DNA of 64,000 bases from an uncultured Sphingomonadaceae bacterium (GCA_938050045.1 CALLJS010000004.1:7434-71433); one strand, 5' to 3'; positions 43,376 to 58,567 are shown, numbered from the stretch's first letter. Program-made: numbers and translations. Notes: generated by a model not told the origin, from the sequence alone.

Positions 43376-45679
43376 ATGGACCGAAGTTTCACTCTGAATG
43401 ATGCGACAGAAAGCACTGCTCAGGATATTGATCTTGATGCCGAAAATGCTATTGATAATGCGCAAGAAATTGCTTTGCTAAAACGCCGCTTGAAGCGCAG
43501 TGAAATGGCAAGGGAAGAAGCCGAATCCCTATTAGAGAGTAAAAGCAGACGTCTAAGCAAATTGGACGATCAATTACGGCAAAAAGAAGAAGAGTTGATC
43601 CGTAAAGTAGATCAGACGCAACAATATTTGGTAAATGCCCAACGCTTGGCTAATGTCGCCACCTTTCATATTGACGAAGATGTGCGCTTTGTGGGTTCGC
43701 TCAATTTCTCTAAAATTGTTGGCTCGAAATCTGAAGTCAATAATATCAGACAATTACGTGCCATGGTTCATAGGCGCGATATTGATGATATTGATGCGAT
43801 TATCAAAAATGCCATGTTGGGCGGGTTAATTGGTAATGCTCTAGAGCATGATGTGCGCGTGCTGGATGATTATGGACGTATCCGCTGGTTGCGATGGTCG
43901 GCGCAACAGATTGTTAATGCCGATAATGGCAAGGTTGATTGCTATGGAGCGGTTCGCGATATTACCGTTGAACGGCGCGCGGAACGCCATGAAAAAACGC
44001 TGTTGGCCCTGAGCGAGCGACGCTATAAACAGTTGCAAAAAATGTCCGCTCAATTATCCGATCGCGTTAAGGCTATGGAAATGATGAGCAATGCCTTGCG
44101 CGATGCGCGCGAAGTAGCGATTCGGGCTAATAAATCTAAGTCCCGTTTCTTGGCGATGATGAGCCATGATATTCGCACACCAATGAATGCTATTTTGGCA
44201 ACATTAGAATTATTGAGCCTATCTAAATTGGATGAAGTGCAGAAACGGCAATTAAAATTGGTGCAAAATAGCGGCGATCAATTGCTATTCCTGCTAGCTG
44301 ATATTATTGAATATGCCCGATCGGATGGTTGGTTGATTGAAATAGAAGCCCAACCCATTGCCGTCGATACTGTTATCAGCAATACAGCCGATACGTGGCG
44401 GCAATTGGCGCATAAAAAAGATTTGGACATTCAAACCGATATAAAAATGGATGGTGGTAATTATATCAAAACCGATCCAACACGGGTGCGTCAGTTGCTG
44501 GATAATTTGATAAGCAATGCCATTAAATATACCGATAATGGTATCATTACGATTAGCGCGACTATTAAGTCTGATAAGGATGATAATATATTAAGGGTTA
44601 GCGTTTCTGATACTGGTGATGGGATTAGCGAATCGGTGCAACAAATGTTGTTTGAAGATTTAGAGCGCGGCGAACATCAAGATGATTTGAATATCCAAGG
44701 CAGCGGATTAGGTTTGTCCATTTGTCGCCGCATTGTATATGCTATGAATGGCGATATTGGCGTAGAAAGTAAATTGAATCAGGGCAGCATGTTCTGGTTT
44801 GAAATTCCAGTTAAAACCACGAACGAAGAAGATTATCTCTATAATCAAGTCAGCGAGAAAACTATTCAAACATTGCTGGCAAATGGGCGACGCCCAAAAT
44901 TATTAATAGCCGAAGATGTGGCTGCTAACCGCATGGTTTTAACCTCTATGTTGGAAAAATTAGGGTGCGATTATGAAATTGCTATCGATGGCCGTCAAGC
45001 GGTTGAAATAACGCAATTGCATAAATTTGATGCCATTTTGATGGATGTCTCTATGCCGCGCATGAACGGGATGGAGGCCACTAAAGAAATACGCTCACAA
45101 GGTAAGGAAACCCCTATTATCGCCGTTACTGCCTTTGCTGCCGATGACGAAAAAGAAGCGATTATGGCCTCGGGTATGGATGGTTTAATTTCTAAACCTA
45201 TTAGCATCTCATCGCTATATCAATCGCTCGAAACCATCTTTTGTGGTGCGGATAATAATGATTTGCACCGATATTTGGGCAATGGTGAAAATGATAATCA
45301 TAACCGTGCCTCGGTCCCCGATTTTGATGTTATAGATTATATTGATACCGAAAAATTACACCATCAGCTAATATCTGTCCCGCCCGAAATGCGGGTTAAA
45401 TTACAAGAAGCAATTGTCGATGATTTGGGCAGTTGGTTCAGGCGTTTTCAAAGCGCTTGGCAAGCATCGGATGACCAGGAAATATCGGCAGCTAACCATG
45501 CCTTAAAAGGGATTTGTAATGGCTTTGGGGCGCATAAATTAATATCATCAATCGAGAGTTTGCGCGCCAAATCATCGATAGGGGATGCAAAAGCTTTGAC
45601 GCAAGTGATTGAAATTTATGACCATACGGCCTCTTCGTTTAAGAATGCAGCCGCGATAATAGACGAACGCAACGGCTAA
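43376..45679 (+). CDS. Soluble hybrid sensor histidine kinase: coiled-coil, PAS, HisKA, HATPase, REC, HPt
   Basis: H-box SRFLAMMSHDIRTPMNAI. N box DNLISNAIKYT, G boxes DTGDGI and GSGLGLSI. Receiver ILMDVSMPRMNG. C-terminal HPt motif NHALKGICNGFGA. No hydrophobic TM stretch. Confidence 0.9.
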   Translation: MDRSFTLNDATESTAQDIDLDAENAIDNAQEIALLKRRLKRSEMAREEAESLLESKSRRLSKLDDQLRQKEEELIRKVDQTQQYLVNAQRLANVATFHIDEDVRFVGSLNFSKIVGSKSEVNNIRQLRAMVHRRDIDDIDAIIKNAMLGGLIGNALEHDVRVLDDYGRIRWLRWSAQQIVNADNGKVDCYGAVRDITVERRAERHEKTLLALSERRYKQLQKMSAQLSDRVKAMEMMSNALRDAREVAIRANKSKSRFLAMMSHDIRTPMNAILATLELLSLSKLDEVQKRQLKLVQNSGDQLLFLLADIIEYARSDGWLIEIEAQPIAVDTVISNTADTWRQLAHKKDLDIQTDIKMDGGNYIKTDPTRVRQLLDNLISNAIKYTDNGIITISATIKSDKDDNILRVSVSDTGDGISESVQQMLFEDLERGEHQDDLNIQGSGLGLSICRRIVYAMNGDIGVESKLNQGSMFWFEIPVKTTNEEDYLYNQVSEKTIQTLLANGRRPKLLIAEDVAANRMVLTSMLEKLGCDYEIAIDGRQAVEITQLHKFDAILMDVSMPRMNGMEATKEIRSQGKETPIIAVTAFAADDEKEAIMASGMDGLISKPISISSLYQSLETIFCGADNNDLHRYLGNGENDNHNRASVPDFDVIDYIDTEKLHHQLISVPPEMRVKLQEAIVDDLGSWFRRFQSAWQASDDQEISAANHALKGICNGFGAHKLISSIESLRAKSSIGDAKALTQVIEIYDHTASSFKNAAAIIDERNG

Positions 45680-45826: not shown

Positions 45827-47299
45827 TTAATAGGCGCCTTTGCCCGTTATGACGGCTGGGATGGTGCGGAATATTAATTTAATATCCTTCCACAAAGATT
45901 TTTTCTCAAGATATTCGACATCCAAATCGACTTGCTGTTCAAAGGGAATATCAGCGCGACCAGAAACTTGCCATGTGCAGGTGATGCCAGGTTTTCCGTC
46001 CAACCTTTTGCGTTCTTTATCGCCATAAGCAATAACCTCATTGGGCAAGGCAGGTCTTGGCCCAACTATGGACATTTCGCCTGTTAGCACATTCACAATT
46101 TGCGGTAATTCATCAATAGAGGCACGGCGAATAAATTTGCCAACGCGCGTTACTCTTGGGTCTTTCTTCATTTTGAAACATACAGAATCGCGTTCATTCA
46201 TATCGCTTAATTCTGCTTTTCGGGCTTCTGCATCGCTATACATAGACCGAAATTTCCAAATCTTAAATGGCTTACCATCTTTGCCGATACGGGTTTGTTT
46301 GAATAAGGGTGAGCCTTTATCTTCTAAGGCTATGAGCAAGCAAAGCGCAGCAGCTATCGGCCCCAATAAAATTAATGCAACCAATGCGATCGTCATATCC
46401 AAACCGCGTTTCATGATATTTTTATATCGTTCTTTATAGCCTCTGCTCTCGAGCGCATAAATTACGGCGCGCGATAAAAACTCAATATTACCCGCAAGAT
46501 AGCGTCCCGCCAACCTTTTGGGTTCGCACATAAACCGCCAGACCCATTCCATATGCATTGTGCGCATTAATTTTGGGGCTCTTGGGATTCTACCAGAATA
46601 ATAATCAAACAAACCGCCGACGCCCATCACCACAGCCGCAGTTAATTTATCACGATTTTTATTGATCCAAACCTCTTGATGCGGAACACCCATGCCGACC
46701 AAAACTATAGAAGCTCCAGATGCATTGATGGCGGCGATAATTTCGTCTTCCTCTTTTTCTTTATCATAATATCCATGCTGCGTACCAGCGAACTTTAGCC
46801 CAGGATAGCTGTTGCGCATATTCTTACTAGCCGCCGCCGCGACGCCCTGTGCGCCCCCCAATAAAAATAAGGATTGACCAGCGATATTTGCTTTTTCGCA
46901 CAGAAGCGGAAATAAATCGGTACCATTTAGGTTGTTGATATAGTCTGTACCAGCCATTTTCCCAGCTAATTTTACGCCAGCACCATCGGGCAAAATCGCA
47001 TCAGCATTTTTGAGGGCTTCTTTATAGTCTGCATTTTTGCGAGAGATGTTGACGCAATGCGCGTTGATAAAATGCAATGTGTTCTTTTCGCCCAAAGCTG
47101 CAGCCTTTACGATTGCACTAGCTGTATCTTCTAAGGAAGAATTAACCAGCGGTATTTGAAAGAGAGGAATCGATTTTTTGCGATTGAGGTGCAAACCCAA
47201 ATTGGTGGTATCGGCATCGATATTAGAAATGGTGGACTGACCGTTCATTGCTTCTAATTTAAGCCGTGCAAATTGATTGTTGATGTCAATATAACTCAT
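45827..47299 (-). CDS. Fusion protein: WecG/TagA/CpsF (GT26) glycosyltransferase N-domain plus bacterial sugar transferase (polyprenyl-phosphate phosphoglycosyltransferase) C-domain
   Basis: The N-half has GT26 motifs (INAHCVN, LPDGAGV, GVPHQEVW, RAPKLMRTMHMEWVWR). The C-half has PGT motifs (PLFKQTRIG, KFRSM, DPRVTRVG, DELPQ, SIVGPRP). Confidence 0.85.
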   Translation of the reverse strand: MSYIDINNQFARLKLEAMNGQSTISNIDADTTNLGLHLNRKKSIPLFQIPLVNSSLEDTASAIVKAAALGEKNTLHFINAHCVNISRKNADYKEALKNADAILPDGAGVKLAGKMAGTDYINNLNGTDLFPLLCEKANIAGQSLFLLGGAQGVAAAASKNMRNSYPGLKFAGTQHGYYDKEKEEDEIIAAINASGASIVLVGMGVPHQEVWINKNRDKLTAAVVMGVGGLFDYYSGRIPRAPKLMRTMHMEWVWRFMCEPKRLAGRYLAGNIEFLSRAVIYALESRGYKERYKNIMKRGLDMTIALVALILLGPIAAALCLLIALEDKGSPLFKQTRIGKDGKPFKIWKFRSMYSDAEARKAELSDMNERDSVCFKMKKDPRVTRVGKFIRRASIDELPQIVNVLTGEMSIVGPRPALPNEVIAYGDKERKRLDGKPGITCTWQVSGRADIPFEQQVDLDVEYLEKKSLWKDIKLIFRTIPAVITGKGAY

Positions 47300-47331: not shown

Positions 47332-47347
47332 AGCATAATTTGTGCCA
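47332..47347 (-). promoter_or_regulatory. Sigma-54 type -24/-12 promoter motif for the GT26-PGT gene
   Basis: The minus strand reads TGGCACAAATTATGCT. GG and GC are at consensus spacing, about 35 nt upstream of the ATG at 47299, with a GGAGA RBS in between. Confidence 0.55.
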
Positions 47348-47453
47348 AATAGGGTAATGTTCTCAAATTCAAACCTTTATATGGTTAATGCTATATAAGG
47401 GATTACTGCATTGAAAAATAGAGATAAATTTATTCTCAATTTACGAATATGAT

Positions 47454-47496
47454 ATTGCAAAATGCAAATTATTCTGCCCCATATTTGCATATTGCT
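47454..47496. promoter_or_regulatory. Candidate enhancer (UAS): TTGCA-AAA-TGCAA palindrome plus TTGCA-TAT-TGCTA near-copy
   Basis: Perfect inverted repeat at 47454-47466. A one-mismatch copy lies at 47484-47496, 30 bp centre to centre. Both lie between the two divergent -24/-12 motifs. Confidence 0.45.
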
Positions 47497-47549
47497 AAAT
47501 CAAATAATATTAATTTATTTAAGACATTGTAATATTTGATTTTATTTTT

Positions 47550-47565
47550 TGGCACGGCTTTTGAA
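47550..47565 (+). promoter_or_regulatory. Weaker sigma-54-like -24/-12 motif for the wzx-GT2-GT2-GT4 operon
   Basis: TGGCACGGCTTTTGAA: the -24 half is perfect, but the -12 half has GA instead of the conserved GC. It lies 31 nt upstream of the ATG at 47596. Confidence 0.35.
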
Positions 47566-47595: not shown

Positions 47596-48882
47596 ATGAA
47601 AACAATGGCGATGAAATTGAAAAATAGCTTTGCAGAAGGCGGAAGCTTGCCAATCATCAATGCATTGATGGCTTATGGTTCAGCGCAATTGGCCATTCGT
47701 TTGGTGCGTTTGGTTGTGGTTATCATCATTGCGCGGCAATTGGTGCCAGAATTGGTCGGCGTTGCGGCTCTAACATTGACGATATTCGAACTTACCCGCG
47801 TCCTAGCCAATATAGGCGTTGGTCAAAAAATTATATCCTCGACCAATGCTGACTTTGAAAAAACATGCAATAGCGCGCATAGAATATTTTGGATTTGGTG
47901 CCCTGCGGTTGCCGCTGTGCAATTGCTCATGGCGCTGGGACTATATACTATATTTGATCAATATTTATCCGCAATGATGCTCGCTTCGCTCTGCTTGGTA
48001 TATTTCTTTATGCCGGGTGGTTTGGTGCAATGTTTTCGTCTTATGCGGGCAAAGAAACTATCAACCTGCGCCAAAATTGACGCTATTCAAACGATCAGCG
48101 ATCATATCTTAACCTGCGCGATGTTGATGGTATGGATTAGCCCTTGGTCGATCGTGCTGCCCAAATTGCTTACGGCACCCATTTGGCTCATCATGATGCG
48201 CCGCAGTGAAAGCTGGAAACCCGATGCATCGCTGGGCTTTATTGAATATCGCTCTATGGTGCGATTTGGATTGTCGGTATTAATCACCGATAGTTTAATC
48301 GCTATCCGCAGCCAAGCCGATAAATTGATAATCGGTGCGATGTTGGGCGTCAGCGCATTGGGCACTTATTATTTCGCCTTTAATGCGGGCATTGGCATAG
48401 TATCTGCTCTGATAACCGCGTTTGGCACAGTGATATATCCACATTTGTGCAACAATGAATTAGCCGCACAACAGCGCGATAAAATGAAATTAGCGATAAT
48501 GGCTGGCCTTGCCATTTTTGGAACTGCCGCCGCCGCGCAATATATTTTAGCTCCTTATTATGTGCCGATCATTTTCGGTGAAAAATGGAACCATGCGACG
48601 CAGCTAATCCAGATATTGGCATTGGCATCTATTCCCATGATTTGCCTAGCTTTGACCACCGGTTGGCTTCGCGCCAATGACCGCGCCAATATTGATGCAT
48701 GGGCAGGGTTATTGGCCAGTGTGTGCGCATTGGGCGCGATGGCAATAGGCGCTCAATATGGCTTAGTTTCGGCGGCGATGGCCTGGGTTGTGGGAACAAC
48801 GCTAATCGCCATTCCATTTGCATTGACAATTTTTATCCCATTATTTCGACTTAATATCCCCAAATTTCAACCAGGAGTATGA
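47596..48882 (+). CDS. Wzx-like polysaccharide flippase (copy 2)
   Basis: 428 aa, multi-TM, first gene of a glycosyltransferase operon. Confidence 0.65.
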   Translation: MKTMAMKLKNSFAEGGSLPIINALMAYGSAQLAIRLVRLVVVIIIARQLVPELVGVAALTLTIFELTRVLANIGVGQKIISSTNADFEKTCNSAHRIFWIWCPAVAAVQLLMALGLYTIFDQYLSAMMLASLCLVYFFMPGGLVQCFRLMRAKKLSTCAKIDAIQTISDHILTCAMLMVWISPWSIVLPKLLTAPIWLIMMRRSESWKPDASLGFIEYRSMVRFGLSVLITDSLIAIRSQADKLIIGAMLGVSALGTYYFAFNAGIGIVSALITAFGTVIYPHLCNNELAAQQRDKMKLAIMAGLAIFGTAAAAQYILAPYYVPIIFGEKWNHATQLIQILALASIPMICLALTTGWLRANDRANIDAWAGLLASVCALGAMAIGAQYGLVSAAMAWVVGTTLIAIPFALTIFIPLFRLNIPKFQPGV

Positions 48883-49808
48883 TTATGCCATCCCCTTATT
48901 TTTCCGTTATAATACCCGTCTATAATGCGCAAAACCATCTAAGAGAAACTGTGCAATCTGTAATCGATCAAAGCTTCACAGATTTTGAAATTATCATGAT
49001 TGATGATGGGTCAAGCGACGATAGCCTGGCTATCATGCTTGAACTTGCAAATCATGATGATCGATTGAAAGTCATATCGCAAAATAATCAAGGCGTTTCT
49101 GTAACCCGTAATATGGGGGCAGAGATTGCCAGAGGTAAGTTTTTGGCTTTCTTGGATGCTGATGATATTTGGTTGCCTGAAAAATTAGCAACGCATTACG
49201 CGCTGCATCATCGCAACACGTCTATCAGCGTAAGCTATGGGCAAATCGCATTTGTCGAAACCGATAATTTACTGAGCCTGCGCACATATTCCACCGTTAT
49301 GGAGCATCCGCTTACGATCAATGAAATCGTTGCTGAGAACCCAGTGTGCACCACATCAAATTTGGTGGTTTCGCGCATCTTATTTTTATCAACTGGTGGT
49401 TTTGATGAAACGATGACCCACGCCGAAGACCAAGAATGGCTGGCTAGAATAGTCCAGGATGGCCACATCATTTGCGGTATTGATAGATATTTGGTGGATT
49501 ATCGGCTTAGCGCCGATGGTTTATCGGTTAATTTACCCGCCATGTATGATGGTTGGAAGCTGATGGCACAACAATATAGCGCATCAGAAGATTTCAAATA
49601 TGCAGAAGCCATTTATTTGCGCTATTTATCGCGCCGCGCATTGCGCTCGGGTGCGCCTTCTAAAGTCGCGCTGCACTATGCGATAAAAGGTTTATCCTCC
49701 AATAGCCAAGGCTTTTTTAACGATAAAAAACGCGGCTGGCTGACATTGATTAGCGCAGGCGTTGGAATGATCCTGCCGCGCTCTACGCGCCTGCATATTT
49801 TTGCTTAA
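48879..49808 (+). CDS. GT2-family glycosyltransferase
   Basis: FSVIIPVYN...MIDDGSSDDS...FLDADD motifs. The start could be 48879 or 48885, and the AGGAG RBS favours 48885. Confidence 0.9.
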   Translation: MIMPSPYFSVIIPVYNAQNHLRETVQSVIDQSFTDFEIIMIDDGSSDDSLAIMLELANHDDRLKVISQNNQGVSVTRNMGAEIARGKFLAFLDADDIWLPEKLATHYALHHRNTSISVSYGQIAFVETDNLLSLRTYSTVMEHPLTINEIVAENPVCTTSNLVVSRILFLSTGGFDETMTHAEDQEWLARIVQDGHIICGIDRYLVDYRLSADGLSVNLPAMYDGWKLMAQQYSASEDFKYAEAIYLRYLSRRALRSGAPSKVALHYAIKGLSSNSQGFFNDKKRGWLTLISAGVGMILPRSTRLHIFA

Positions 49809-49841
49809 TGACTCTATCAAAATAATAGGAAAGATTTGAAA

Positions 49842-50834
49842 ATGAATGATGTTTTAATTTCGGTTGTAATGCCCGTCTATAATGTAGAAAAATATGTAGC
49901 AGAATCGATCCAATCGGTTTTGAATCAAAGCTATGAAAATTTTGAACTGATCATTGTGGATGATGGAGGTCAGGATAAAAGTATTGATATTTGTCACCAA
50001 TTTGACGACCCGCGAATTAGAATAATTTCGCAAAATAACAGAGGATTGGCTGGCGCGCGTAATAGTGGAATTAATGCCGCTAAAGGACGCTATATCGCAT
50101 TTTTAGATAGCGATGATTTGTGGCATAAAGATAAATTATCGCTGCATAAAATCCATTTGGATAGCAATGGACGCATCGGCGTAAGCTATAGTAGTTCGCG
50201 CTTCATTGACGAAAATAGCAAACCATTAAAACAAGCCCAAAAACCAAAATTATTAGATATTACGGCAGAGCATATTTTTAAGCGCAATCCGATTGGTAAT
50301 GGCTCAGCCCCCGTTATTCGGCGTGATGCACTAAATTTAATCGCCTTTAGGCATCCGAAAGAAAATGATAGAATATGTTATTTTGATGAGAGTTTTCGTC
50401 AATCCGAAGACATTGAACTATGGGTTCGCATTGCATTGACCAGCCCCTTTATTTTTGAAGGGATAGGCGGGCTGCTGACACGATACCGCATCATCAGCGG
50501 CGGATTATCGGCCAATATTGTTGCGCAATATCAAAGCTGGGATAGAATGCATGATAAGGTTAAAGAGCGTTTCCCCGAATTTATTAGCGATCATGGAGCA
50601 GAAGCGAGAGCGTATCAATTGCGCTATTTATCGCGCCGTGCCGTCCAATTAGGCGATGGCGCATTTGCGCTAATCTTGATAAAAGAAGCACTACAAATTA
50701 GCCGCACGCCGCTTTGCAAAGAGCCGATTAAAACGCTCTCAACCATGGCGGCGGCCTATATTTCGCGCTATCTGCCATCGTCATTCGTATCGTCTTTGAT
50801 GGCGGGTTGGACTGGCAGAAAGTCGATCATATGA
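49842..50834 (+). CDS. GT2-family glycosyltransferase (tandem paralogue)
   Basis: ISVVMPVYN...IVDDGGQDKS...FLDSDD. It shares the YLSRRA C-terminal region with the preceding gene. The ATG at 49842 has an AGGAAAG RBS. Confidence 0.9.
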   Translation: MNDVLISVVMPVYNVEKYVAESIQSVLNQSYENFELIIVDDGGQDKSIDICHQFDDPRIRIISQNNRGLAGARNSGINAAKGRYIAFLDSDDLWHKDKLSLHKIHLDSNGRIGVSYSSSRFIDENSKPLKQAQKPKLLDITAEHIFKRNPIGNGSAPVIRRDALNLIAFRHPKENDRICYFDESFRQSEDIELWVRIALTSPFIFEGIGGLLTRYRIISGGLSANIVAQYQSWDRMHDKVKERFPEFISDHGAEARAYQLRYLSRRAVQLGDGAFALILIKEALQISRTPLCKEPIKTLSTMAAAYISRYLPSSFVSSLMAGWTGRKSII

Positions 50835-51859
50835 CATATTTACCAAAAATTGTTCATTTGATTTCTGATTTATCGGTGGGCGGTGTGACCAATAATTTGA
50901 AATTATTTGATGAAGATATATTACAATCAAAATTTGCATCCACTATTGTGCCCATTACAACGCAATGGACGATAGCCCCGCAATATGATGCTGATATTAT
51001 CATCACCCATTTTTCACCAAGTTGGGCAAATTTGCCCTTTCTATTTTCGTTGCGCAAACGCAATATCGGGGCGAAGATTATTCATGTCGAGCATAGCTAT
51101 TCTCCTGAATGGGAAAAATATAGCGTCCCCGAGCCGCATCGTTTTCGGGCTATGCTTAAATTTAGCTATGCTCTTTTTGATAGGGTGGTTTGTGTGTCCA
51201 AAACACAATCAAAATGGATCGAGACTATCAAGGCGGCCCATCCATCTAAGCTACAGGTAATAAACCCATGGTCCAATATTGAACCATTACTCTCTATCGC
51301 TGCGCCTAAATTAGAGGATGATAGGCCGTTGGTCATTGGCAGCTTTGGCAGATTAGTAAAAGAAAAAGGATTTGAAGATTTAATCCACTCTTTTCTAAAA
51401 ATAGCTGACGGCGATGATATGACCCTCTTGATCGGTGGATATGGCCCCGCCGAGGCGCATCTGAAAAAAATAGCAGCGGATGACCCTCGGATAAAATTTT
51501 ATGGCATGGTGCATAATCCAGCCGAATTTATGATGCATTGCGATATTTTTGCTGTGCCGTCTTATTTTGAAACCTTTGGCTTAGTAGCCACCGAGGCTAA
51601 AGCCGCCGCCAGACCCGTGCTGGTCAGCCCTGTGGGGGCATTGGTCGAGCAAATCGGCAATTCAGGACTGGTGATCGACTTTACCAAACATAGTCAAGCC
51701 GGCCGCAGCTTAGCATCCTTAAAATCATGGCCATTACAAATGATGTCCGATGAAGGACGGCAGTCTTGCATCTCTATGACCGCGCGCAAAGCCGCGCAAT
51801 GGGAGCAATTTTTGAACGCGCAAATTATGGATGATTTTATCGCATCAAAGGCGGCATAA
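50831..51859 (+). CDS. GT4/GT1-family glycosyltransferase
   Basis: E-x7-E region (SYFETFGLVATEAKAAARPVLVS). The ATG at 50831 forms an ATGA overlap with the upstream stop. Confidence 0.85.
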   Translation: MTYLPKIVHLISDLSVGGVTNNLKLFDEDILQSKFASTIVPITTQWTIAPQYDADIIITHFSPSWANLPFLFSLRKRNIGAKIIHVEHSYSPEWEKYSVPEPHRFRAMLKFSYALFDRVVCVSKTQSKWIETIKAAHPSKLQVINPWSNIEPLLSIAAPKLEDDRPLVIGSFGRLVKEKGFEDLIHSFLKIADGDDMTLLIGGYGPAEAHLKKIAADDPRIKFYGMVHNPAEFMMHCDIFAVPSYFETFGLVATEAKAAARPVLVSPVGALVEQIGNSGLVIDFTKHSQAGRSLASLKSWPLQMMSDEGRQSCISMTARKAAQWEQFLNAQIMDDFIASKAA

Positions 51860-52340: not shown

Positions 52341-53621
52341 TTACGCATCACCCTTTTCATGGCTCTCGGGCATCAGCCCTTGACCGATGAGGATGAGGGC
52401 GGGCCAATAGAGATAGGCTAATATCTCTAAATTTTCACCAAAGCTGTATAATATGAGCAATGTCACCATCGATAAGGCGAGGCGCGATGCATGATATTTA
52501 TGCGCATTATAGAGCAAGAATAGAAATGAAACAGCCAGCGGTATGGCAAGAGCAAAAAAGCCGCTGAGCCCCTTTACAAATAATAATCCATACCAGCTAT
52601 GGTGGCTGCCTATGGGCATATATTCAACCAAATGTGGGCCGCGCTCTACGACGGCATGGCCAAACCAATAGGCTTCATTCTGCCACCGCTCAACCGCGAT
52701 ACGGCCCAGCGCTGCGCGCACGCGCGATGAATCAGCTCGCGCTCCTGAAAAGCTCTGAATCGCGCTATCAATCAAATTGATAATATCGACCGCAAACCAA
52801 CCCAAGAGCAATAATATCGGCATGGCCATAAACCATAGATAGGGTCTATTGATTTGTGATGCCGCAAAAGCAAAAGGCCAAATGATAATGAGCGCAACCA
52901 GTGCCAGGCGCGATTGTGATAAGAGCATGATTGCGAGCGATGCTATCAAACCGATGGCCTTCCATTTCGCGTCTTTTTCTTCGAGCGCGCATAAAAAATG
53001 TACCAAGGCTATCATCCCAGCAGCAGGCGACCATGGGGCAAAAAATTGCCACCGCGCTGTGCCGACACCAGGTTCGATTGTATATAAAGTTGCCGCAAAA
53101 TATTCGCTGCCAGAGCCGCCCAAAACTTTGAGGGGGGATACCCATAATGTTTGCGGCAGTCCGATATAAGGCGCGATCAAAAAGAGCGGTAAAATAAGCA
53201 GGCTATATTTGCCCAAACGGCATATGGCGCGGTGGATGACCTCGCTGCGTATCGGCAGCACAGCACCGGCCAGAATGAACATGGCTAATAAAGCCCATCC
53301 TTTTGCCCAACCGATAGAGGATTTAATCGTTGCGCCCGTGCCGAGGCGATAATCGACATGACCGATCCATAAAATGACCAAGAGCGCGAACATGCCCACA
53401 ATCCATAGCCATATGAATATGTTGGGGGCTTTGATACGTTTTTCTTCGGCTAAGCCTGGTGCTATAAAATAAGTCGATAGGACGATGGCGGTTAGCGCGA
53501 CCCCAAGAACGGGGCCGGCTATATATAATCCGCCGACCAACCATAAACCCCAAGTGCTTATTATGGCATAGACAATTATTTTTTCTTGAATATTTTGCGG
53601 ATGATCCGCTGACGTAACCAT
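52341..53621 (-). CDS. O-antigen ligase/polymerase (Wzy-like) family membrane protein
   Basis: About 10-12 TM segments and a Wzy_C-like LLSQSRLALVALIIIWP segment. Confidence 0.7.
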   Translation of the reverse strand: MVTSADHPQNIQEKIIVYAIISTWGLWLVGGLYIAGPVLGVALTAIVLSTYFIAPGLAEEKRIKAPNIFIWLWIVGMFALLVILWIGHVDYRLGTGATIKSSIGWAKGWALLAMFILAGAVLPIRSEVIHRAICRLGKYSLLILPLFLIAPYIGLPQTLWVSPLKVLGGSGSEYFAATLYTIEPGVGTARWQFFAPWSPAAGMIALVHFLCALEEKDAKWKAIGLIASLAIMLLSQSRLALVALIIIWPFAFAASQINRPYLWFMAMPILLLLGWFAVDIINLIDSAIQSFSGARADSSRVRAALGRIAVERWQNEAYWFGHAVVERGPHLVEYMPIGSHHSWYGLLFVKGLSGFFALAIPLAVSFLFLLYNAHKYHASRLALSMVTLLILYSFGENLEILAYLYWPALILIGQGLMPESHEKGDA

Positions 53622-55003
53622 AATAATGTCAATCCAATGATAAGAAAGAGTGTTGCTGCTATTGCGCCAGCGATTGCTAGCATTTTTGATGGGCTAGAAG
53701 GGCCGTTGGGTAGAGAAGGGGCTTCTAATAGCTGAACCAAGGGATAAGAAGCAAATGGATCTTGTTTATTGGTATCTAGGCGCGCCAAGGCCGATGAAAA
53801 CACCGCCTCGGCCACGCGGTGATCGCGAATAAGATCCGCGAGCTGCGATGCGCTGGTTACAAGCTCGCTGCGATTAGCCGATAATCTGCTAATGTCGCGG
53901 CGAATTTCGGATAGGCTAGCATTGATACCAGAGCGTTGTGATTCTGCCAAAGCCATGCCTTGCATCAAATTGGAACGACCAGCCGATACCGTAATATCAA
54001 CGCTATTTAGGATGGAATCATTGTCCAAGCCTGTAACGTCGCGTCCACGGCGCAGCAGGGCATCACGCAGGCTATCGCGTTCATCTTTGCTGACTATCAG
54101 AGCAGTATGATTATCGCCCAAAGTCGCCGATTTTTCCTCTGCGATGACAGAGGCTTTGGCATATTTATCGGCCAGCCCCTGAAATATTGGATCAGAGCGC
54201 AATTTGAGAGCTTTATTGGCATCGCCAATGCCCGTTCCTAAGATAGCGGCGAATTTTTGCGTTTCGGCCGCTTTGCTGCGTAATTTTGTGCGCTCATCGC
54301 GCTCTTTTTCCTGCAAAGCATCCAAATTGGCAATGCGGTTATTAAATTGATCTAATGAAACCAAGCCATTATTGGCTTGAAAAGCGAGCAATTTCTTTTG
54401 GGTAGATTGCACCTTTTTTTCCAATTCCACCAAATATTTGCTATCCACTATCTCGCGCTGCTTCGCTTCATCTTTGCGCAAAGATTGAAGCTGCAATAAA
54501 AATTGGTCTTTAAGAGCCGCTGCCCTTTTTTCGGCTTGCTCTGCGCTGCCGCCCGATATTTTCACAATAATCAAATTGGTTTGATCGATAAGTTCAATTT
54601 TTGGTGTGGGAAAATTATCCGCCTCTTCGCCTAAGCTGATGGCGGCACTGCGCAATGTGCGGTTGGTGCTGAGCAGCCTTTTGTAATTTTCCGTAGGACT
54701 CAAAGTCGCGCTAGCAAAAGCCGATGATGAGGAAGATTGGGCCTGCCCAATACTCTCAACATTGAGCGAACCGCCAGCACCACTTCCAGGTAATATCAAC
54801 GAAAATTCACTTTGATATTTAGCTGGTGTAAAGAGCAAATAGGCAGTGGTTAGCGACCAAATAGCAGCGAAAATCAATAATGAAGTGATAAGATAACGCC
54901 GCTCGCGCCAGTGCAAATTTCGCCATGATAATTTGCGCTGTTTGATAATATCTCTAATGAATATGACAGCATGGTCATAATCTAATTGTTCTATAATCGA
55001 CAT
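53576..55003 (-). CDS. Polysaccharide co-polymerase / chain-length determinant (Wzz/GumC-like), no kinase domain
   Basis: An N-terminal and a C-terminal TM segment flank a long coiled-coil periplasmic region. There are no Walker motifs. Confidence 0.75.
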   Translation of the reverse strand: MSIIEQLDYDHAVIFIRDIIKQRKLSWRNLHWRERRYLITSLLIFAAIWSLTTAYLLFTPAKYQSEFSLILPGSGAGGSLNVESIGQAQSSSSSAFASATLSPTENYKRLLSTNRTLRSAAISLGEEADNFPTPKIELIDQTNLIIVKISGGSAEQAEKRAAALKDQFLLQLQSLRKDEAKQREIVDSKYLVELEKKVQSTQKKLLAFQANNGLVSLDQFNNRIANLDALQEKERDERTKLRSKAAETQKFAAILGTGIGDANKALKLRSDPIFQGLADKYAKASVIAEEKSATLGDNHTALIVSKDERDSLRDALLRRGRDVTGLDNDSILNSVDITVSAGRSNLMQGMALAESQRSGINASLSEIRRDISRLSANRSELVTSASQLADLIRDHRVAEAVFSSALARLDTNKQDPFASYPLVQLLEAPSLPNGPSSPSKMLAIAGAIAATLFLIIGLTLLWLRQRIIRKIFKKK

Positions 55004-55005
55004 GA

Positions 55006-56187
55006 TTAATCCAAACTCTTGACTAAGATTAATGGAGAAATAGTCTCACCTACGACGCTCACCACATCGCGCAAATTCATCGCCAAACTGTCATAACATG
55101 CGATGCTGTCACCGGGCATAAGATAGGGATCACGGCTATCGCGGTCGGCATTACGAACTAATTTTTCGACAGCACGCGATATTACAATTGATTGACCCGT
55201 GATTGGATTGCGCGACATAAGCACAATCTGACGCGCTGCATTCATCGATGAACCACCCACGCAATTGGCTCCAACCATCGCTTGAGAGAGGCGCGTACCA
55301 TAAGGCAGCTTGCCGCTATCGGTGGTTATCCCCGATGAGGCGCTGCTAAGTGCTGGCCGCGATAGGTTCGACATATAAACGCGAACACCAGGTTGGGTGA
55401 TAATGGTTGGGCGAACCAAGGAAGCTTGTAAACATCCGATTGATGGGACAATGATCTTATCGCCCATTCGCACAGGTATGTCTTGCACAGCCTCTCCTGT
55501 AATGGCCCCGCTCATATTGACTTGTGTCCATTGATTACCGCGTAATAGATATATGGTTTTGATTTCGGCATCGGGTCGAACACCGCCTGCGGCGCGCAAA
55601 GTGGTGGACATATTCTGGCTAGCATTGGCATCGCCATATTGAATATTATTGAAATTCACATCACGAGTTTCGGCATTTTTATCCCCAATTCTAATTAAAC
55701 CTGGGTCAAATACTGCGCCATTAACCGCAACATTCACGCCGCTTAATTCTGCAATAGTAAGCCTAACCCCAGCATGGGCTCTGCGAATTAAACCTTGGTC
55801 ATATAATGTTTTAGCAACGATATTTTGTGCGCTAATTGTCGATTGTCCTGCAATTTTTATGCGATATTTGCCCAATAATGTTATTTCGCCATTATCGCCT
55901 ATTGTATATGTACCCGTTAATTGGTCTTTATCGCCCGCGACATTTAATTTAATGCTATCGCCGCTATTTAACGCATCCATACTCTCTATGAATTGTTCGG
56001 GCTTTACAAAAGTAAGGCCATCGATTGCCTGCGGGATGGGTGCGCTATGACAAGAGGTTTGATGTATATCGCCCGACATATATTGTGCGGCATAATAATT
56101 TTCAATATCATTATCTGGCGTGCGCATCGTGGCGCACCCCGATAATAGGGACAGCAATGTTAATGAGGTGATAAGTTTTTTCGTCAT
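55006..56187 (-). CDS. wza: Outer-membrane polysaccharide export lipoprotein (Wza-like)
   Basis: Lipobox LLSGC. Poly_export/SLBB-like repeats (GDSIKLNV, GDKIIVP, GDSIACY). Confidence 0.8.
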   Translation of the reverse strand: MTKKLITSLTLLSLLSGCATMRTPDNDIENYYAAQYMSGDIHQTSCHSAPIPQAIDGLTFVKPEQFIESMDALNSGDSIKLNVAGDKDQLTGTYTIGDNGEITLLGKYRIKIAGQSTISAQNIVAKTLYDQGLIRRAHAGVRLTIAELSGVNVAVNGAVFDPGLIRIGDKNAETRDVNFNNIQYGDANASQNMSTTLRAAGGVRPDAEIKTIYLLRGNQWTQVNMSGAITGEAVQDIPVRMGDKIIVPSIGCLQASLVRPTIITQPGVRVYMSNLSRPALSSASSGITTDSGKLPYGTRLSQAMVGANCVGGSSMNAARQIVLMSRNPITGQSIVISRAVEKLVRNADRDSRDPYLMPGDSIACYDSLAMNLRDVVSVVGETISPLILVKSLD

Positions 56188-56275: not shown

Positions 56276-56291
56276 TGCAACGGTCGTGCCA
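56276..56291 (-). promoter_or_regulatory. Sigma-54 -24/-12 promoter for the wza-wzz-wzy operon
   Basis: The minus strand reads TGGCACGACCGTTGCA, an exact match to TGGCACG-N4-TTGCW, about 90 nt upstream of the wza ATG (56187). Confidence 0.7.
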
Positions 56292-56353: not shown

Positions 56354-56410
56354 TTGCAATTTGCAAACCTTTTTCTTGCATATTGCAATCAAGATTATTG
56401 CATATTGCAA
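56354..56410. promoter_or_regulatory. Candidate enhancer (UAS): three TTGCA-W3-TGCAA palindromes phased 22 bp apart
   Basis: TTGCAATTTGCAA at 56354-56366, TTGCATATTGCAA at 56376-56388, TTGCATATTGCAA at 56398-56410. All three lie between two divergent -24/-12 motifs. Confidence 0.55.
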
Positions 56411-56463
56411 TGCGCTAAGCCCAGAAACTCTATGTTTGACACTATAGTATAGCATTTTGATAT

Positions 56464-56479
56464 TGGCATGAGCATTGCT
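56464..56479 (+). promoter_or_regulatory. Sigma-54 -24/-12 promoter for the hnoX / sigma-54 activator operon
   Basis: TGGCATGAGCATTGCT: GG and GC at consensus spacing, with a TTGCT -12 element. It lies 45 nt upstream of the ATG at 56524, which has an AAGGAAA RBS. Confidence 0.65.
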
Positions 56480-56523
56480 TTACCACCGCGAATAAGAATT
56501 AAATTTTTAAGTAAGGAAATGGT

Positions 56524-57066
56524 ATGAAGGGTATAATATTTACAGAACTTGTGCGCTTTATGGAGCAAGTTAAATCGGCAAAATTTGTTGATGAAGTGAT
56601 TATCGCTGCGCAATTACCCAATGACGGTGCCTTCACTTCTGTGGGTAATTATCCATCGGAATATGCCCTCTCTATGGTGACGCAAGCCTCTGCTGTATCT
56701 GGCATTGATGCCGCCGAATTATGCCGTCTTTTTGGCCATTATCTCTACAATAGATTTTTGGTGCTTTATCCCGATATTATCAGCGCTTATACGAATGCCG
56801 AAGATTTGCTTGCCCATGTTGGCAGCCACATTCATAGCGAAGTGCGCACCTTATACCCTGATGCGCGGCCGCCCCATATAGAGAGCAAGAATAGCGATGA
56901 AGGTTTTGAATTAAATTATCAATCGCACCGCCCTATGGCCGCCATCGCTTGTGGTTTGGTTCAAGGGTGTATGGAGCATTTTAAGGATGAACGCGAGCTG
57001 AAATGGAGTTTTTCAGAGGATGGAAAAAGTGCAAGCTTTACCATTAAGGATCGATTAAATGCCTAA
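56524..57066 (+). CDS. hnoX: H-NOX (haem nitric oxide/oxygen-binding) sensor protein
   Basis: MKGIIF N-terminus. Proximal His104 in HIHSEVRTLYPDARPP. Haem-propionate triad Y132-Q-S134-H-R136 (YxSxR). 180 aa stand-alone domain. Confidence 0.9.
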   Translation: MKGIIFTELVRFMEQVKSAKFVDEVIIAAQLPNDGAFTSVGNYPSEYALSMVTQASAVSGIDAAELCRLFGHYLYNRFLVLYPDIISAYTNAEDLLAHVGSHIHSEVRTLYPDARPPHIESKNSDEGFELNYQSHRPMAAIACGLVQGCMEHFKDERELKWSFSEDGKSASFTIKDRLNA

Positions 57067-58567
57067 ACCGACCATCTTGATAATTGAAGATATTGCTTCG
57101 CTATCTTTGGCATATGCAGGGGATTTAGAAAGTGCTGGTTTTCAATCGATCATCGTTGATAGTCTTGCGCAGGCTAATGAACAAATAAAAAGCAATGCAA
57201 ATGGCTTTGATGCCATCTTGCTTGATCTGCAACTGCCCGATGGCAATGGTTTAGATTGGCTGAGAGAAAATGAAGCGTTTGTTGCCAATAATGCTATCAT
57301 TGTAGCGACAGCCGATGGTTCAATAAACCGTGCGATTGATGCGATGCGTCTTGGTGCTTATGATTTTATGGTCAAGCCACTGGCGCCTGCTCGTTTGGTC
57401 GCAGCGGTCGAAAGCGCTCTAAAAAATAACAGTAAAGCCGATAATATCCCGCAAGAATTGGCGTCACCCGTTCATAAAAATGGTTTCGCGGGCTTTGTTG
57501 GTAACAGCCCCCCCATGCGTAATATTTACAAGCAAATAGAGAATATTAGCCGATCAAAAGCGACAATTTTCATAACAGGTGAGAGCGGCACAGGCAAAGA
57601 AGTTTGCGCCGATGCTATTCATAGCAGCGGCCCGCGCGGCAAAAAGCCTTTTGTTGCTATTAACTGTGGTGCGATTCCCGAAGATTTGATGGAATCTGAA
57701 CTTTTTGGTCATTTGAAAGGATCTTTCACGGGTGCCATTTCTGATCGTGTCGGGGCTGTTCAGGCCGCGCATGGCGGGACATTATTTTTGGATGAAATTT
57801 GTGAAATGGAATTGAAGCTCCAAGTGAAATTATTACGCTTCATTCAAACGGGAACAGTACAGCGCGTTGGTGCGACCAAAACAGAGAATGTCGATGTCCG
57901 TATTATCTGTGCGACCAACCGCGATCCGCAATCCGAAGTAACAGCAGGACGTTTTAGAGAAGATCTATATTATCGTTTGGCCGTTGTCCCGATTGAATTG
58001 CCCGCATTGCGCTCGCGCGGCGATGATATTATATTGCTCGCCAATGAATTTTTGACGCGATATGCCGAAGAAGAAGGCAAGAAATTTTCAACTATGGAAC
58101 CATCCTTAGTGCAAGCATTGCAAATGCACCAATGGCCCGGCAATGTTCGTGAGTTGCAAAATTTGATGCGCCGCGCGGCGGTTATGTATGCGGGGCCAAC
58201 GTTAGGAACAGAAATATTACCCGAATTTATTCCGCCCAAAGAAATTGACCGTATTCAATCCGAACCATTACAGATTAATCCAGCAAATCTAGAAGCAGCG
58301 GCGATGCAAGCCATTGAGTCCGCCAATCAAATGGCGACGCTCACCAATATGGATTGGATGGATGGCCGCACTTTGGATCAGATAGAGCAAATGGTTGTCG
58401 AACAAGCGATAGAAAAATGCGGTGGGAGCGTTACTAAAGCTGCGAAAATTTTGGATGTCAGCCCATCAACCCTCTATCGCAAGCGCGAAAAATGGATGGT
58501 GGATGGAGAAGCTATGGTTGATTTAGAGCAGGTTGATGTGCGCCATTTATCAAAATTACGTTCATAA
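57059..58567 (+). CDS. Sigma-54-dependent response regulator, LuxO/NtrC-like (REC, AAA+, Fis-type HTH)
   Basis: REC domain (IIEDIASLSLAY..., LLDLQLPDGNG). Walker A GESGTGKE. GSFTGA (GAFTGA variant), LFLDEI, and C-terminal HTH (KAAKILDVSPSTLYRK). 8-nt overlap with hnoX. Confidence 0.9.
   Translation: MPKPTILIIEDIASLSLAYAGDLESAGFQSIIVDSLAQANEQIKSNANGFDAILLDLQLPDGNGLDWLRENEAFVANNAIIVATADGSINRAIDAMRLGAYDFMVKPLAPARLVAAVESALKNNSKADNIPQELASPVHKNGFAGFVGNSPPMRNIYKQIENISRSKATIFITGESGTGKEVCADAIHSSGPRGKKPFVAINCGAIPEDLMESELFGHLKGSFTGAISDRVGAVQAAHGGTLFLDEICEMELKLQVKLLRFIQTGTVQRVGATKTENVDVRIICATNRDPQSEVTAGRFREDLYYRLAVVPIELPALRSRGDDIILLANEFLTRYAEEEGKKFSTMEPSLVQALQMHQWPGNVRELQNLMRRAAVMYAGPTLGTEILPEFIPPKEIDRIQSEPLQINPANLEAAAMQAIESANQMATLTNMDWMDGRTLDQIEQMVVEQAIEKCGGSVTKAAKILDVSPSTLYRKREKWMVDGEAMVDLEQVDVRHLSKLRS

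Follow-up and report, generated by a model that had tools for sequence, protein, structure and literature searches.

How can a haem-based gas sensor pass on its signal when its gene is joined to that of a transcription factor and no kinase gene stands beside it? This question is raised by a stretch of 64,000 nucleotides from an uncultured Sphingomonadaceae bacterium (the whole stretch is referred to here as the window), in which hnoX is followed by a sigma-54 activator gene and preceded by a divergent export gene. The feature of canonical operons, a kinase or c-di-GMP enzyme gene adjoining hnoX, is absent. The initial annotation of this locus interpreted the pair as a sensor co-translated with a terminal transcription factor, and suggested either a rewired NO-sensing pathway or, possibly, direct control of the activator by H-NOX.

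The hnoX gene (56524..57066, plus strand) encodes a stand-alone H-NOX haem sensor of 180 aa, which matches the Pfam HNOB profile PF07700 (E 8.4e-30, 104.3 bits against a cut-off of 25.5), with residues 2-158 spanning profile positions 1-160 of 163. Among solved structures, bacterial H-NOX proteins come closest (6ocv, E 4.6e-28; 6bde; 4u99), and the PDB H-NOX matches range from E 5e-28 to 1e-11. The hallmark residues named in the initial annotation, the proximal His H104 and the haem-propionate motif Y132-x-S134-x-R136, were found at the same positions, and together with P117 they are invariant across 16 H-NOX homologues with identity down to 37%. The positions that we take to be those of the O2-stabilising residues W9, N74 and Y140 of Tt H-NOX are filled in our alignment by the non-polar L9, L74 and I141. 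A non-polar distal pocket is characteristic of H-NOX proteins that select NO, and the pocket of the window protein fits this type. We infer from these residues that the protein binds haem and NO. A zinc/cysteine redox switch was also considered and rejected: the family alignment shows no conservation of the three cysteines C67, C143 and C149, which makes a zinc/thiol switch unlikely.

The downstream gene (57059..58567, plus strand) encodes a LuxO-like sigma-54 enhancer-binding response regulator of 502 aa with the Pfam domains Response_reg, Sigma54_activat (PF00158, E 3.6e-70), AAA_lid_14 and HTH_8 (E 2.6e-14, residues 438-479). The REC-AAA+(GSFTGA)-HTH layout described initially is borne out by these domains and by a GSFTGA loop at residues 221-226, and all profile searches proposed at that stage (PF07700 for the sensor; REC, Sigma54_activat and HTH_8 for the activator) gave matches. 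Among homologues of the activator the loop reads GSFTGA in 97 of 120 and GAFTGA in 21 of 120, the Ser variant being the majority form. With an AAA+ domain carrying Walker A (GESGTGKE at 174), a GAFTGA-type loop and an HTH, the protein is by its domain content a bacterial enhancer-binding protein of the NtrC class. Its receiver has the full phospho-acceptor set (E10, D11, D56, T84 and K106), and these residues align with the LuxO receiver of 5ep0. The likeness to LuxO noted earlier extends to the best NCBIfam model and the best solved structure. The top model, Vibrio LuxO NF041946, scores 534.9 bits without reaching its equivalog cut-off of 800, and leads by 160 bits (NtrC 375, the third-best PEP_resp_reg 373, NorR 327 bits); the best structure is LuxO 5ep0 (398 bits over residues 4-393; NtrC1 286 bits). 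As the score stays below the equivalog cut-off, a LuxO-like DNA specificity is suggested by the boxes described below and not by orthology.

The hnoX stop and the activator start lie within an overlap of 8 nt (ATGCCTAA, 57059..57066, plus strand), taken from the ORF coordinates and already noted in the initial annotation, which implies translational coupling of the two genes. In relatives the two genes overlap by up to 8 nt or are separated by up to 4 nt, so the tight coupling of sensor and terminal activator recurs. The operon is bounded by a convergent gene downstream (58575-60539) and a divergent gene upstream (55006-56187), and thus contains no kinase gene, as had been claimed.

A neighbourhood survey of H-NOX homologues, which the initial annotation had proposed, placed the sigma-54 activator gene directly 3' of hnoX in all 25 assessable species-level loci. 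These loci, with H-NOX at least 42% identical to that of the window, belong to Sphingomonadales and three Halomonadaceae; a 26th locus was left out because its contig ends at hnoX. The pair is kept where flanking genes differ, and most of the 25 loci also keep the exopolysaccharide (EPS) cluster with the divergent EPS operon, boxes and promoters. This comparison confirms that the pairing of hnoX with the activator gene is not due to chance. A kinase gene between the two, which would have pointed to a recent deletion in the window, was looked for and found in none of the relatives. The arrangement is neither a one-off rewiring nor a recent loss; contrary to the earlier idea of a rewired pathway, it is what most members of a conserved clade have. 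A kinase gene lies directly 3' of hnoX in about 40 loci that are more distant.

The initial annotation held that the kinase is encoded elsewhere, and a gene for a hybrid histidine kinase (43376..45679, plus strand) was indeed found at the other end of the EPS cluster. Its 767-aa product is composed of an N-terminal region with a weak PAS match, HisKA (H264), HATPase, REC (D557) and Hpt domains; the Hpt histidine H708 lies within NHALKG, and a TorS-type alignment extends through this domain. The start of the kinase, read by eye, resembles a coiled coil. The gene is located 13 kb from hnoX in the window, is not co-transcribed with it, and a scan of the window detected no sigma-54 site or box in front of it.

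The association of this kinase with H-NOX is suggested by gene linkage in relatives, whose loci were viewed with 10-kb flanks (those of the Halomonadaceae end before the expected kinase position). In a Parasphingorhabdus genome, the orthologue occupies the corresponding end of the EPS cluster. Parasphingopyxis algicola and the metagenome scaffold_530 have hnoX overlapping the kinase gene instead, with the activator gene on its own ~10 kb off. The kinase-coupled H-NOX proteins of these two loci are 67% identical to the window H-NOX and 69-74% identical to the activator-linked H-NOX of Parasphingorhabdus, and are therefore nested within the activator-linked group. Kinase, hnoX and activator genes are contiguous in three relatives, the kinase gene is directly upstream of hnoX in five loci (L086, L091, L090, L026 and L030), and at least 11 contigs, matched by their length, are apparently common to the match lists of H-NOX, activator and kinase. 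The N-terminal 200 aa of the kinase align end to end with hnoX-adjacent kinases of Saprospiraceae, with E-values that refer to a small local database. Among the annotated ORFs of the window, which cover most of it up to ~24.5 kb and from ~31.4 kb on, there are no other kinases and no stand-alone Hpt/LuxU, GGDEF, EAL or HD-GYP proteins, and within the same coverage only housekeeping genes lie outside the cluster. The kinase at 43376-45679 is thus, by domains and gene linkage, the best candidate for the partner of H-NOX and the predicted phosphodonor of the activator.

Three transcription units of the EPS cluster are predicted targets of the activator. The export, chain-length and polymerase operon (52341..56187, minus strand) encodes a Wza-like export protein (55006-56187), a chain-length-determinant-like protein (53576-55003) and a Wzy/O-antigen-ligase-like protein (52341-53621); these assignments are based on weak Pfam and NCBIfam matches and on synteny, and the synteny of the operon with hnoX is strongly conserved in relatives. 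The second operon (47596..51859, plus strand) encodes, by Pfam matches, a flippase (Polysacc_synt_3), two GT2 and one GT4 glycosyltransferases, and is conserved in relatives. The third unit (45827..47299, minus strand) is a fusion of a WecG/TagA-type glycosyltransferase with a polyprenyl glycosylphosphotransferase, assigned by Pfam as the priming enzyme; its match to NCBIfam TIGR03025 (E 2e-83) is below the model cut-off.

The DNA between the divergent wza-like and hnoX genes contains two predicted sigma-54 promoters around a set of palindromic boxes. The promoter TGGCATgagcaTTGCT (56464..56479, plus strand) faces hnoX, with a predicted transcription start at ~56490, ~34 nt 5' of the ATG, and the promoter TGGCACgaccgTTGCA (56276..56291, minus strand), a perfect consensus, faces the export/chain-length/polymerase operon; the two promoters are ~34 and ~78 nt from the protein start codons. 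Three perfect TTGCAW3TGCAA palindromes (56354-66, 56376-88 and 56398-410), spaced 22 bp apart, are located ~86-139 bp from either predicted transcription start, and we predict them to be upstream activator sites. Their sequence is identical to the experimentally defined consensus of the LuxO UAS, TTGCAW3TGCAA (PMC11443567, PMC10162802). The sigma-54 consensus without mismatches occurs twice in the 64 kb, and both matches are this divergent pair; perfect boxes occur four times against 0.10 expected, three of them between the pair. A sigma-70 promoter match (TTGACA-17-GATATT) overlaps a sigma-54 site and is a possible basal promoter; the counts of sigma-70 promoters and terminators around the operon are not above those in shuffled sequence.

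A similar but weaker arrangement is found 9 kb away inside the EPS cluster (47332..47565), where the sigma-54-like promoters TGGCACaaattATGCT (47332-47347, minus strand) and TGGCACggcttTTGAA (47550-47565, plus strand), both deviating from the consensus in the -12 element, diverge around one perfect box (47455-47467) and one with a single mismatch (47485-47497). When up to one mismatch is allowed, four of five sigma-54-like sites and five of six boxes in the window fall into these two EPS intergenic regions, which make up ~1% of its length.

The sites are also conserved. In an alignment of eight taxa, invariant columns concentrate in the boxes and in the -24/-12 elements. The -24/-12 elements of the hnoX-facing promoter are invariant in this alignment, and a plus-strand site is present in 19 of 26 related loci; the export-operon promoter is likewise invariant and recurs ~240 nt upstream of hnoX in relatives. 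A box is found within 350 bp upstream of hnoX in 21 of the 26 species-level loci (background 0.005 per 350 bp), and a box and/or sigma-54 site recurs in relatives where the second control region would be expected, at about -8.5 to -8.9 kb from hnoX. The TTGCAW3TGCAA boxes are probably occupied by the activator, and together with the sigma-54 promoters before the EPS operons and hnoX they constitute the predicted output of the pathway, which was absent from the initial annotation.

Taken together, these data make it probable, in our judgement, that NO acts through H-NOX, the hybrid kinase and the LuxO-like activator on sigma-54-dependent transcription of the EPS genes and of the activator's own operon. 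The hnoX-activator operon would then supply the sensor and the output of a signalling module contained entirely within the EPS cluster. NO bound at the H-NOX haem would allow the sensor to modulate the hybrid kinase, which has no recognised sensor domain beyond the weak PAS match. The kinase's own Hpt domain would transfer phosphate to D56 of the activator, making a separate LuxU unnecessary, and the phosphorylated activator would bind the boxes and, with sigma-54 RNA polymerase, fire as many as four promoters in two divergent pairs. The targets would be the priming transferase, the flippase/glycosyltransferase operon, the export/chain-length/polymerase operon and the hnoX-activator operon itself, the last implying positive autoregulation. 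By analogy with Vibrio systems, NO-bound H-NOX most likely lowers the kinase output, so that NO would turn EPS synthesis down. The protein families, the catalytic residues, the cis-elements with their conservation and the three-way gene linkage are established by sequence comparison. From these we infer the H-NOX-kinase contact and the phosphotransfer route. Some observations fit this circuit less well. The kinase gene is 13 kb off on a separate transcript and has neither a sigma-54 site nor a box in front of it, its weak PAS-like region could sense something else, and both promoters at 47.3-47.6 kb are off consensus in the -12 element. Finally, hnoX is translationally coupled to the activator gene, which alone would suggest a stoichiometric H-NOX-activator pair.

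The last observation leads to an alternative in which H-NOX docks on the receiver or linker of the activator as an NO-dependent anti- or co-activator, with the hybrid kinase feeding in separately or not at all. As the genes overlap by 8 nt, the two proteins should be co-translated in similar amounts; the pairing is the majority state in the 25 assessable close loci, where no kinase gene is adjacent, and the pair outlasts changes in the flanking genes. This gene coupling is the one piece of positive evidence for the direct control that had been considered initially, and the kinase-coupled hnoX of Parasphingopyxis and scaffold_530, with the activator gene alone ~10 kb away, argues against it. 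Moreover, the direct H-NOX partners in reviewed systems are kinases or c-di-GMP enzymes (PMC8738867), and the activator's receiver, which has every phospho-acceptor residue, is built for phosphorylation; we regard direct docking as unlikely. A related and slightly more doubtful reading is that H-NOX is a dedicated accessory subunit of the enhancer-binding protein, positioned on its receiver or linker alone or as a bridge to the hybrid kinase, and gates AAA+ activator assembly directly. If true, this would be a previously undescribed mode of H-NOX output and of enhancer-binding protein control, and would suggest that LuxO/SypG-type regulators began in EPS clusters and were later recruited by Vibrios to quorum sensing.

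Other alternatives concern the signal, the partner or the target. The same module could respond to O2, to CO or, through a haem-free or thiol form of H-NOX, to oxidants, given that H-NOX ligands vary and that haem-free V. cholerae H-NOX is reported to sense redox via a zinc/cysteine site (PMC8738867); the hosts are also aerobic marine heterotrophs. The invariant proximal His and YxSxR motif, the replacement of the O2-stabilising residues by L9/L74/I141 and the lack of conservation of the three cysteines make such a signal improbable. It is still more improbable that the adjacency reflects co-regulation only and that the partner of H-NOX, for example a diguanylate cyclase, is encoded elsewhere in the genome. 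The position of hnoX behind a sigma-54 promoter and LuxO-type boxes makes it a predicted activator target, and our view is confined to 64 kb of the genome; against this, hnoX always adjoins an activator or kinase gene and never a biosynthetic gene, and the annotated window ORFs (up to ~24.5 kb and from ~31.4 kb on) include no GGDEF, EAL or HD-GYP gene. That the activator is a true quorum-sensing LuxO driving a Qrr small RNA, as in Vibrio, seems hardly credible, even though LuxO is its best family match, the boxes are perfect LuxO sites and many homologues are labelled 'repressor protein LuxO' by JGI. Its score is under the LuxO equivalog cut-off, no stand-alone LuxU gene is present among the same annotated ORFs, and the sigma-54 promoters are so close to protein start codons that there is no room for an sRNA gene. 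Rfam at gathering thresholds matched no family in the whole window, and between wza and hnoX no Qrr match appeared even when E-values up to 1 were allowed. A Qrr-type sRNA after the sigma-54 promoters was rejected, as a permissive scan of 56100-56600 returned only a chance miRNA match on the palindromes.

The closest analogue of the proposed NO-H-NOX-kinase-activator module is found in V. fischeri, where HnoX inhibits HahK, which acts through the Hpt domain of SypF on the sigma-54 activator SypG and thereby on the syp EPS locus; SypG is ~48% identical to LuxO and activates several sigma-54 promoters of this locus (PMC12369376, PMC10162802, PMC8738867). In both cases, as proposed here, H-NOX would act via the Hpt of an EPS-locus hybrid kinase on a locus-encoded LuxO-related sigma-54 regulator. 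The match is one of architecture only: each EPS locus encodes a sigma-54 response regulator and an Hpt-bearing hybrid kinase of its own and has several sigma-54 promoters. In contrast to V. fischeri, which has a separate hnoX-hahK operon, hnoX lies here inside the EPS cluster with the activator gene (or with the kinase gene in relatives), no dedicated HahK-type kinase stands between H-NOX and the Hpt-bearing kinase, and the hosts are Alphaproteobacteria. The window boxes match the LuxO consensus and not the published SypG enhancer TTCTCANNNTGMDWN, from which they differ by inspection at positions 3-5 (TTGCA vs TTCTC). No STAS (SypA-like) or SypE-like domain proteins were found among the cluster ORFs scanned.

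The H-NOX-HqsK-LuxU-LuxO pathway of V. harveyi and V. parahaemolyticus shares with the proposed order an H-NOX, a hybrid kinase and a LuxO-type REC-AAA+-HTH activator, as well as TTGCAW3TGCAA sites upstream of sigma-54 promoters. This quorum-sensing input differs from the window system in having a separate LuxU instead of an Hpt fused to the kinase, and Qrr sRNAs as LuxO targets instead of protein-coding EPS operons and the activator's own operon. In the window, moreover, hnoX is joined to the regulator gene and not to that of the kinase, and the activator stays below the LuxO equivalog score. The H-NOX fold, the haem-pocket residues and the likely control of a kinase without a recognised sensor domain of its own are shared with Shewanella HnoX/HnoK and Pseudoalteromonas H-NOX/HahK, whose H-NOX proteins are the ones that the structure matches place nearest. 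In such canonical systems the kinase gene is directly 3' of hnoX and the outputs are mostly c-di-GMP enzymes, whereas in the window a transcription factor gene takes this position and the kinase gene lies 13 kb off.

NorR senses NO via an N-terminal regulatory GAF domain with a non-haem iron centre. As in NorR, NO would finally control a sigma-54 AAA+ activator in the module proposed here; unlike NorR, which serves NO detoxification, sensing would proceed via a separate haem protein and a phosphorelay, with EPS genes as the target. The PrsK-PrsR system of PEP-CTERM/EpsH loci likewise combines an EPS locus with a sigma-54 response regulator that is encoded there and presumably controls it, and the chain-length and export proteins of the window have weak matches to PEP-CTERM-system models. 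The scores are far below the cut-offs, and H-NOX has no role in PrsK-PrsR.

Sigma-54 activators are not listed among H-NOX gene neighbours in the reviews and literature searched, and literature searches for an H-NOX/sigma-54 activator pairing or for this sphingomonad cluster returned no description. The combination of hnoX with a sigma-54 activator gene represents a new class of H-NOX gene neighbourhood. Known H-NOX signalling has c-di-GMP enzymes as its end point or, for Vibrios, quorum-sensing or syp relays scattered over the genome, whereas here the predicted sensor, the kinase with its Hpt, the transcription factor, its sites, promoters and target operons fit into 15 kb. This layout has been kept across Sphingomonadales and is present in three Halomonadaceae genomes as well. 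LuxO-type activators with their exact DNA site are thus found outside Vibrionaceae, where they are predicted to control polysaccharide genes directly and not through small RNAs, and their occurrence beyond Vibrio is relevant to how the LuxO/SypG pair arose. Overall, the locus looks like a compact, previously undescribed switch from NO to biofilm matrix that is conserved in marine sphingomonads. Nitric oxide is released by algae, animal hosts and denitrifiers, and the module predicts that abundant marine sphingomonads would tune their matrix production to this gas.

Both ORFs described in the initial annotation, the H-NOX gene hnoX (56524-57066) and an activator gene (57059-58567), were recovered at these positions. 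The 180-aa product of hnoX, which had been proposed to be a stand-alone H-NOX, covers the whole Pfam domain HNOB (PF07700) with an E-value of 8.4e-30, and among solved structures it comes closest to H-NOX sensors of bacteria (6ocv, 6bde, 4u99). The hallmark residues listed earlier (His104 and Y132-x-S134-x-R136) are all found; H104, P117, Y132, S134 and R136 do not vary across 16 aligned homologues, whose identity ranges down to 37%. Residues L9, L74 and I141 align with what we take to be the hydrogen-bonding W9, N74 and Y140 of the O2-binding Thermoanaerobacter H-NOX. NO-selective H-NOX proteins typically have a non-polar pocket of this kind, and the window protein would be expected to bind haem and NO.

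The 502-aa activator, previously read as a REC-AAA+(GSFTGA)-HTH protein resembling LuxO, has REC, Sigma54_activat, AAA-lid and HTH_8 domains, an intact receiver (E10, D11, D56, T84, K106), a Walker A motif at 174 and GSFTGA at 221. The resemblance is upheld by Vibrio LuxO being both the top NCBIfam model (535 bits vs. 375 for NtrC) and the top solved structure (5ep0, 398 bits vs. 286 for NtrC1, with an alignment spanning the receiver, linker and AAA+ domain). An assignment as LuxO proper was rejected, because the 800-bit equivalog cut-off is not reached and Qrr targets are lacking; no Rfam family, and no Qrr in particular, matches the window. The activator is a LuxO-like bEBP. In one ENA metagenome contig (L002, 1259-2752) its orthologue is broken up into two ORFs of 312 and 184 aa, through a frameshift or a misassembly.

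The hnoX and activator ORFs do overlap by 8 nt (ATGCCTAA), and the operon was correctly described as having no kinase: since the 5' neighbor of hnoX is divergent and the 3' neighbor of the activator is convergent, it consists of these two genes only. The convergent gene (58575-60539, 654 aa), which ends just 7 nt past the activator stop codon, is of GH42 type as named via the Glyco_hydro_42 domains of its homologue in L001. It is retained in this closest relative and is replaced by unrelated genes in other loci (L003, L004, L088, L089), and we therefore place it outside the module.

The 336-bp intergenic region that separates hnoX from its divergent neighbor contains the only two matches to the sigma-54 consensus TGGCAY-N5-TTGCW in the whole 64-kb window, a perfect TGGCAC-N5-TTGCA on the minus strand (56276-56291) and a consensus match on the plus strand (56464-56479), facing apart. 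Between them are three perfect copies, spaced by 22 bp, of the palindrome TTGCAW3TGCAA, a 13-mer experimentally defined as the LuxO upstream activator site (PMC11443567, PMC10162802). Four perfect copies of this box were observed in the window vs. 0.10 expected. By our own arithmetic, the box centers are ~86-130 bp from the predicted plus-strand promoter start and ~95-139 bp from the minus-strand one, distances that are normal for enhancers. A sigma-70-like match (TTGACA-17-GATATT, 56436-56464) abuts the hnoX sigma-54 promoter on its upstream side and could provide basal expression of an operon that would otherwise be self-activated; the count of sigma-70-like matches in this region is not above that in shuffled sequence. 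The sole permissive Rfam match in the control region (microRNA family mir-7940, E 0.23, 56356-56410) was dismissed as an artefact, falling exactly on the three boxes and arising from their repeated inverted symmetry.

The fourth perfect box (47455) is located 9 kb away in a second divergent intergenic region, beside a one-mismatch box (47485). Both are flanked by a divergent pair of sigma-54-like sites on the minus (47332-47347) and plus (47550-47565) strands, which deviate from the consensus by one mismatch apiece. When up to one mismatch is allowed, four of the five sigma-54-like sites and five of the six boxes in the window fall into the two control regions, which represent ~1% of the sequence. 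The genes behind the four sigma-54 or sigma-54-like promoters constitute an exopolysaccharide (EPS) cluster, with a WecG/priming-transferase fusion gene (45827-47299, minus strand), genes for a flippase, two GT2 and a GT4 glycosyltransferase (47596-51859, plus strand), and Wzy-like, chain-length-determinant-like and Wza-like genes (52341-56187, minus strand).

Homologues of this H-NOX belong nearly all to the Sphingomonadales, and the closest genome locus is from an uncultured Sphingorhabdus (89% H-NOX identity). Culturable carriers include Parasphingorhabdus sp. DH2-15, Citromicrobium bathyomarinum and Parasphingopyxis algicola. We fetched 80 species-level loci and classed the neighboring genes by phmmer with window-derived probes; the 26 loci with an H-NOX at least 42% identical come from Sphingomonadales and from Halomonas sp. 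EAR18, Halomonas litopenaei and Kushneria phyllosphaerae. A LuxO-like activator lies directly 3' of hnoX in 25 of them, the contig of the 26th stopping at hnoX, and the divergent Wza/chain-length/Wzy operon and the flippase operon are kept in the same order in 21 loci. More distant hnoX genes (H-NOX identity ≤41%) show the textbook order, with a histidine kinase gene after hnoX. Conservation extends to the cis-elements: in relatives, exact boxes recur at approximately -160, -138 and -116 from the hnoX ATG, sigma-54 sites at approximately -240 (minus strand) and -55 (plus strand), and a further box and/or promoter at approximately -8.5 to -8.9 kb. Within 350 bp upstream of hnoX, 21/26 loci have a box that is perfect or deviates at one position (background 0.005 per 350 bp), and 19/26 have a plus-strand sigma-54 site. 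The invariant columns of an 8-taxon intergenic alignment cluster at the boxes and at the -24 and -12 promoter elements.

The three gammaproteobacterial genomes (L027, L028, L029) carry the hnoX-activator pair, with H-NOX proteins 42-44% identical and sigma-54 sites upstream of hnoX, together with the Wza/chain-length/Wzy and flippase operons, whose proteins match at E ~1e-95 to 1e-160. The shared pair and EPS operons suggest that the module moved horizontally between Alpha- and Gammaproteobacteria. Two Crocinitomicaceae/Bacteroidia MAGs (L055, 7881-12153; L059, 8634-13161) show an independent arrangement of three genes on one strand, for a sigma-54 activator, H-NOX and a hybrid kinase; the linkage of H-NOX with sigma-54 activators may thus be wider than the sphingomonad clade.

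The kinase had been expected to be encoded outside the hnoX operon, and three types of gene arrangement tie the hybrid kinase at the other end of the EPS cluster (43376-45679), which the initial annotation had already mentioned, to hnoX and the activator. This gene adjoins the priming transferase on the left and encodes HisKA (H264), HATPase, REC (D557) and Hpt (H708) domains. Its Hpt is C-terminal, with H708 in NHALKG and a TorS alignment extending through it, and the N-terminal region gives only a weak PAS match. Type A, the arrangement of the window, is also found in a Parasphingorhabdus genome, where hnoX and the kinase again occupy opposite cluster ends, 12.7 kb apart; the hnoX-activator end of type A is present in Sphingorhabdus sp. 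109 and Citromicrobium too. In type B (Parasphingopyxis algicola and one ENA scaffold), hnoX directly follows and overlaps the kinase gene, and the activator gene is found by itself on the other side of the export operon. Because the type-B H-NOX proteins are 69-74% identical to those of type-A Parasphingorhabdus, we regard them as nested among type A and type B as a relocation within the cluster. In type C (three relatives) the genes for the kinase, H-NOX and the activator lie side by side and are directly preceded by a second large PAS-HisKA-HATPase-REC-Hpt kinase of ~1200 aa (L012, 3574-7143; L026, 2130-5801; L030, 2953-6588), which hints at multi-kinase input as in the Vibrio LuxO/SypG circuits; no orthologue of it was seen in the window. 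The kinase link is further supported by at least 11 contigs common to the match lists of the three proteins (contigs matched by their length alone) and by the N-terminal 200 residues of the kinase, which align over their full length with the N-terminal parts of hnoX-adjacent Saprospiraceae kinases (E-values from a small local database). To the left of the kinase, additional polysaccharide genes (38631-43282; a GT4, a PAP2 phosphatase, a second Polysacc_synt flippase and an unassigned ORF of membrane type with 433 aa) contain no sigma-54 site or LuxO-type box; the Parasphingorhabdus relative lacks them and has the kinase gene immediately after era.

The best-supported reading of these data is a three-protein NO-responsive phosphorelay, in which H-NOX would act on the hybrid kinase, the Hpt domain of the kinase would phosphorylate D56 of the activator, and the activator would then bind the boxes and, with sigma-54 polymerase, switch on the EPS operons and the hnoX-activator operon. 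The H-NOX partners known so far are kinases or c-di-GMP enzymes (PMC8738867). The main rival explanation, in which H-NOX would act directly on the activator, is favored by the translational coupling of the two genes and the prevalence of type A; it is weakened by the coupling of hnoX to the kinase gene in type B and by a receiver that is fully phosphorylatable. Since NO-bound H-NOX inhibits the partner kinase in Vibrio systems, NO is predicted by analogy to lower EPS-gene expression. The protein families, residues and cis-elements, with their conservation and linkage, can be read at the sequence level; we infer from them the binding of haem and NO, which proteins touch, how the phosphate travels, that the activator occupies the boxes, the need for rpoN and the direction of the response.

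The closest known system is the V. fischeri HnoX-HahK-SypF(Hpt)-SypG-syp pathway (PMC12369376, PMC10162802), which likewise combines an NO sensor, an Hpt hybrid kinase encoded in the EPS locus, and an in-locus LuxO-related sigma-54 activator driving several sigma-54 promoters. Unlike in V. fischeri, hnoX of the window is inside the EPS cluster and coupled to the activator, a HahK-type intermediary is lacking, the boxes match the consensus of LuxO and not that of SypG, and the hosts are Alphaproteobacteria. In contrast to the V. harveyi H-NOX-HqsK-LuxU-LuxO pathway, the window system has its Hpt as a domain of the kinase, and its predicted targets are EPS genes instead of Qrr sRNAs. Our literature search found no description of an H-NOX/sigma-54 activator gene pair or of this sphingomonad cluster, and the families named in the figure legend of an hnoX neighborhood analysis in a review (PMC8738867) include no sigma-54 activators. 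The arrangement is real and conserved, and it represents an H-NOX signaling variant that is apparently undescribed, not a new kind of system. We consider it of moderate interest for two reasons: the predicted circuit is compact and testable as a whole, and regulators of the LuxO type, with their DNA site, are seen here outside the Vibrionaceae, as predicted direct regulators of EPS.
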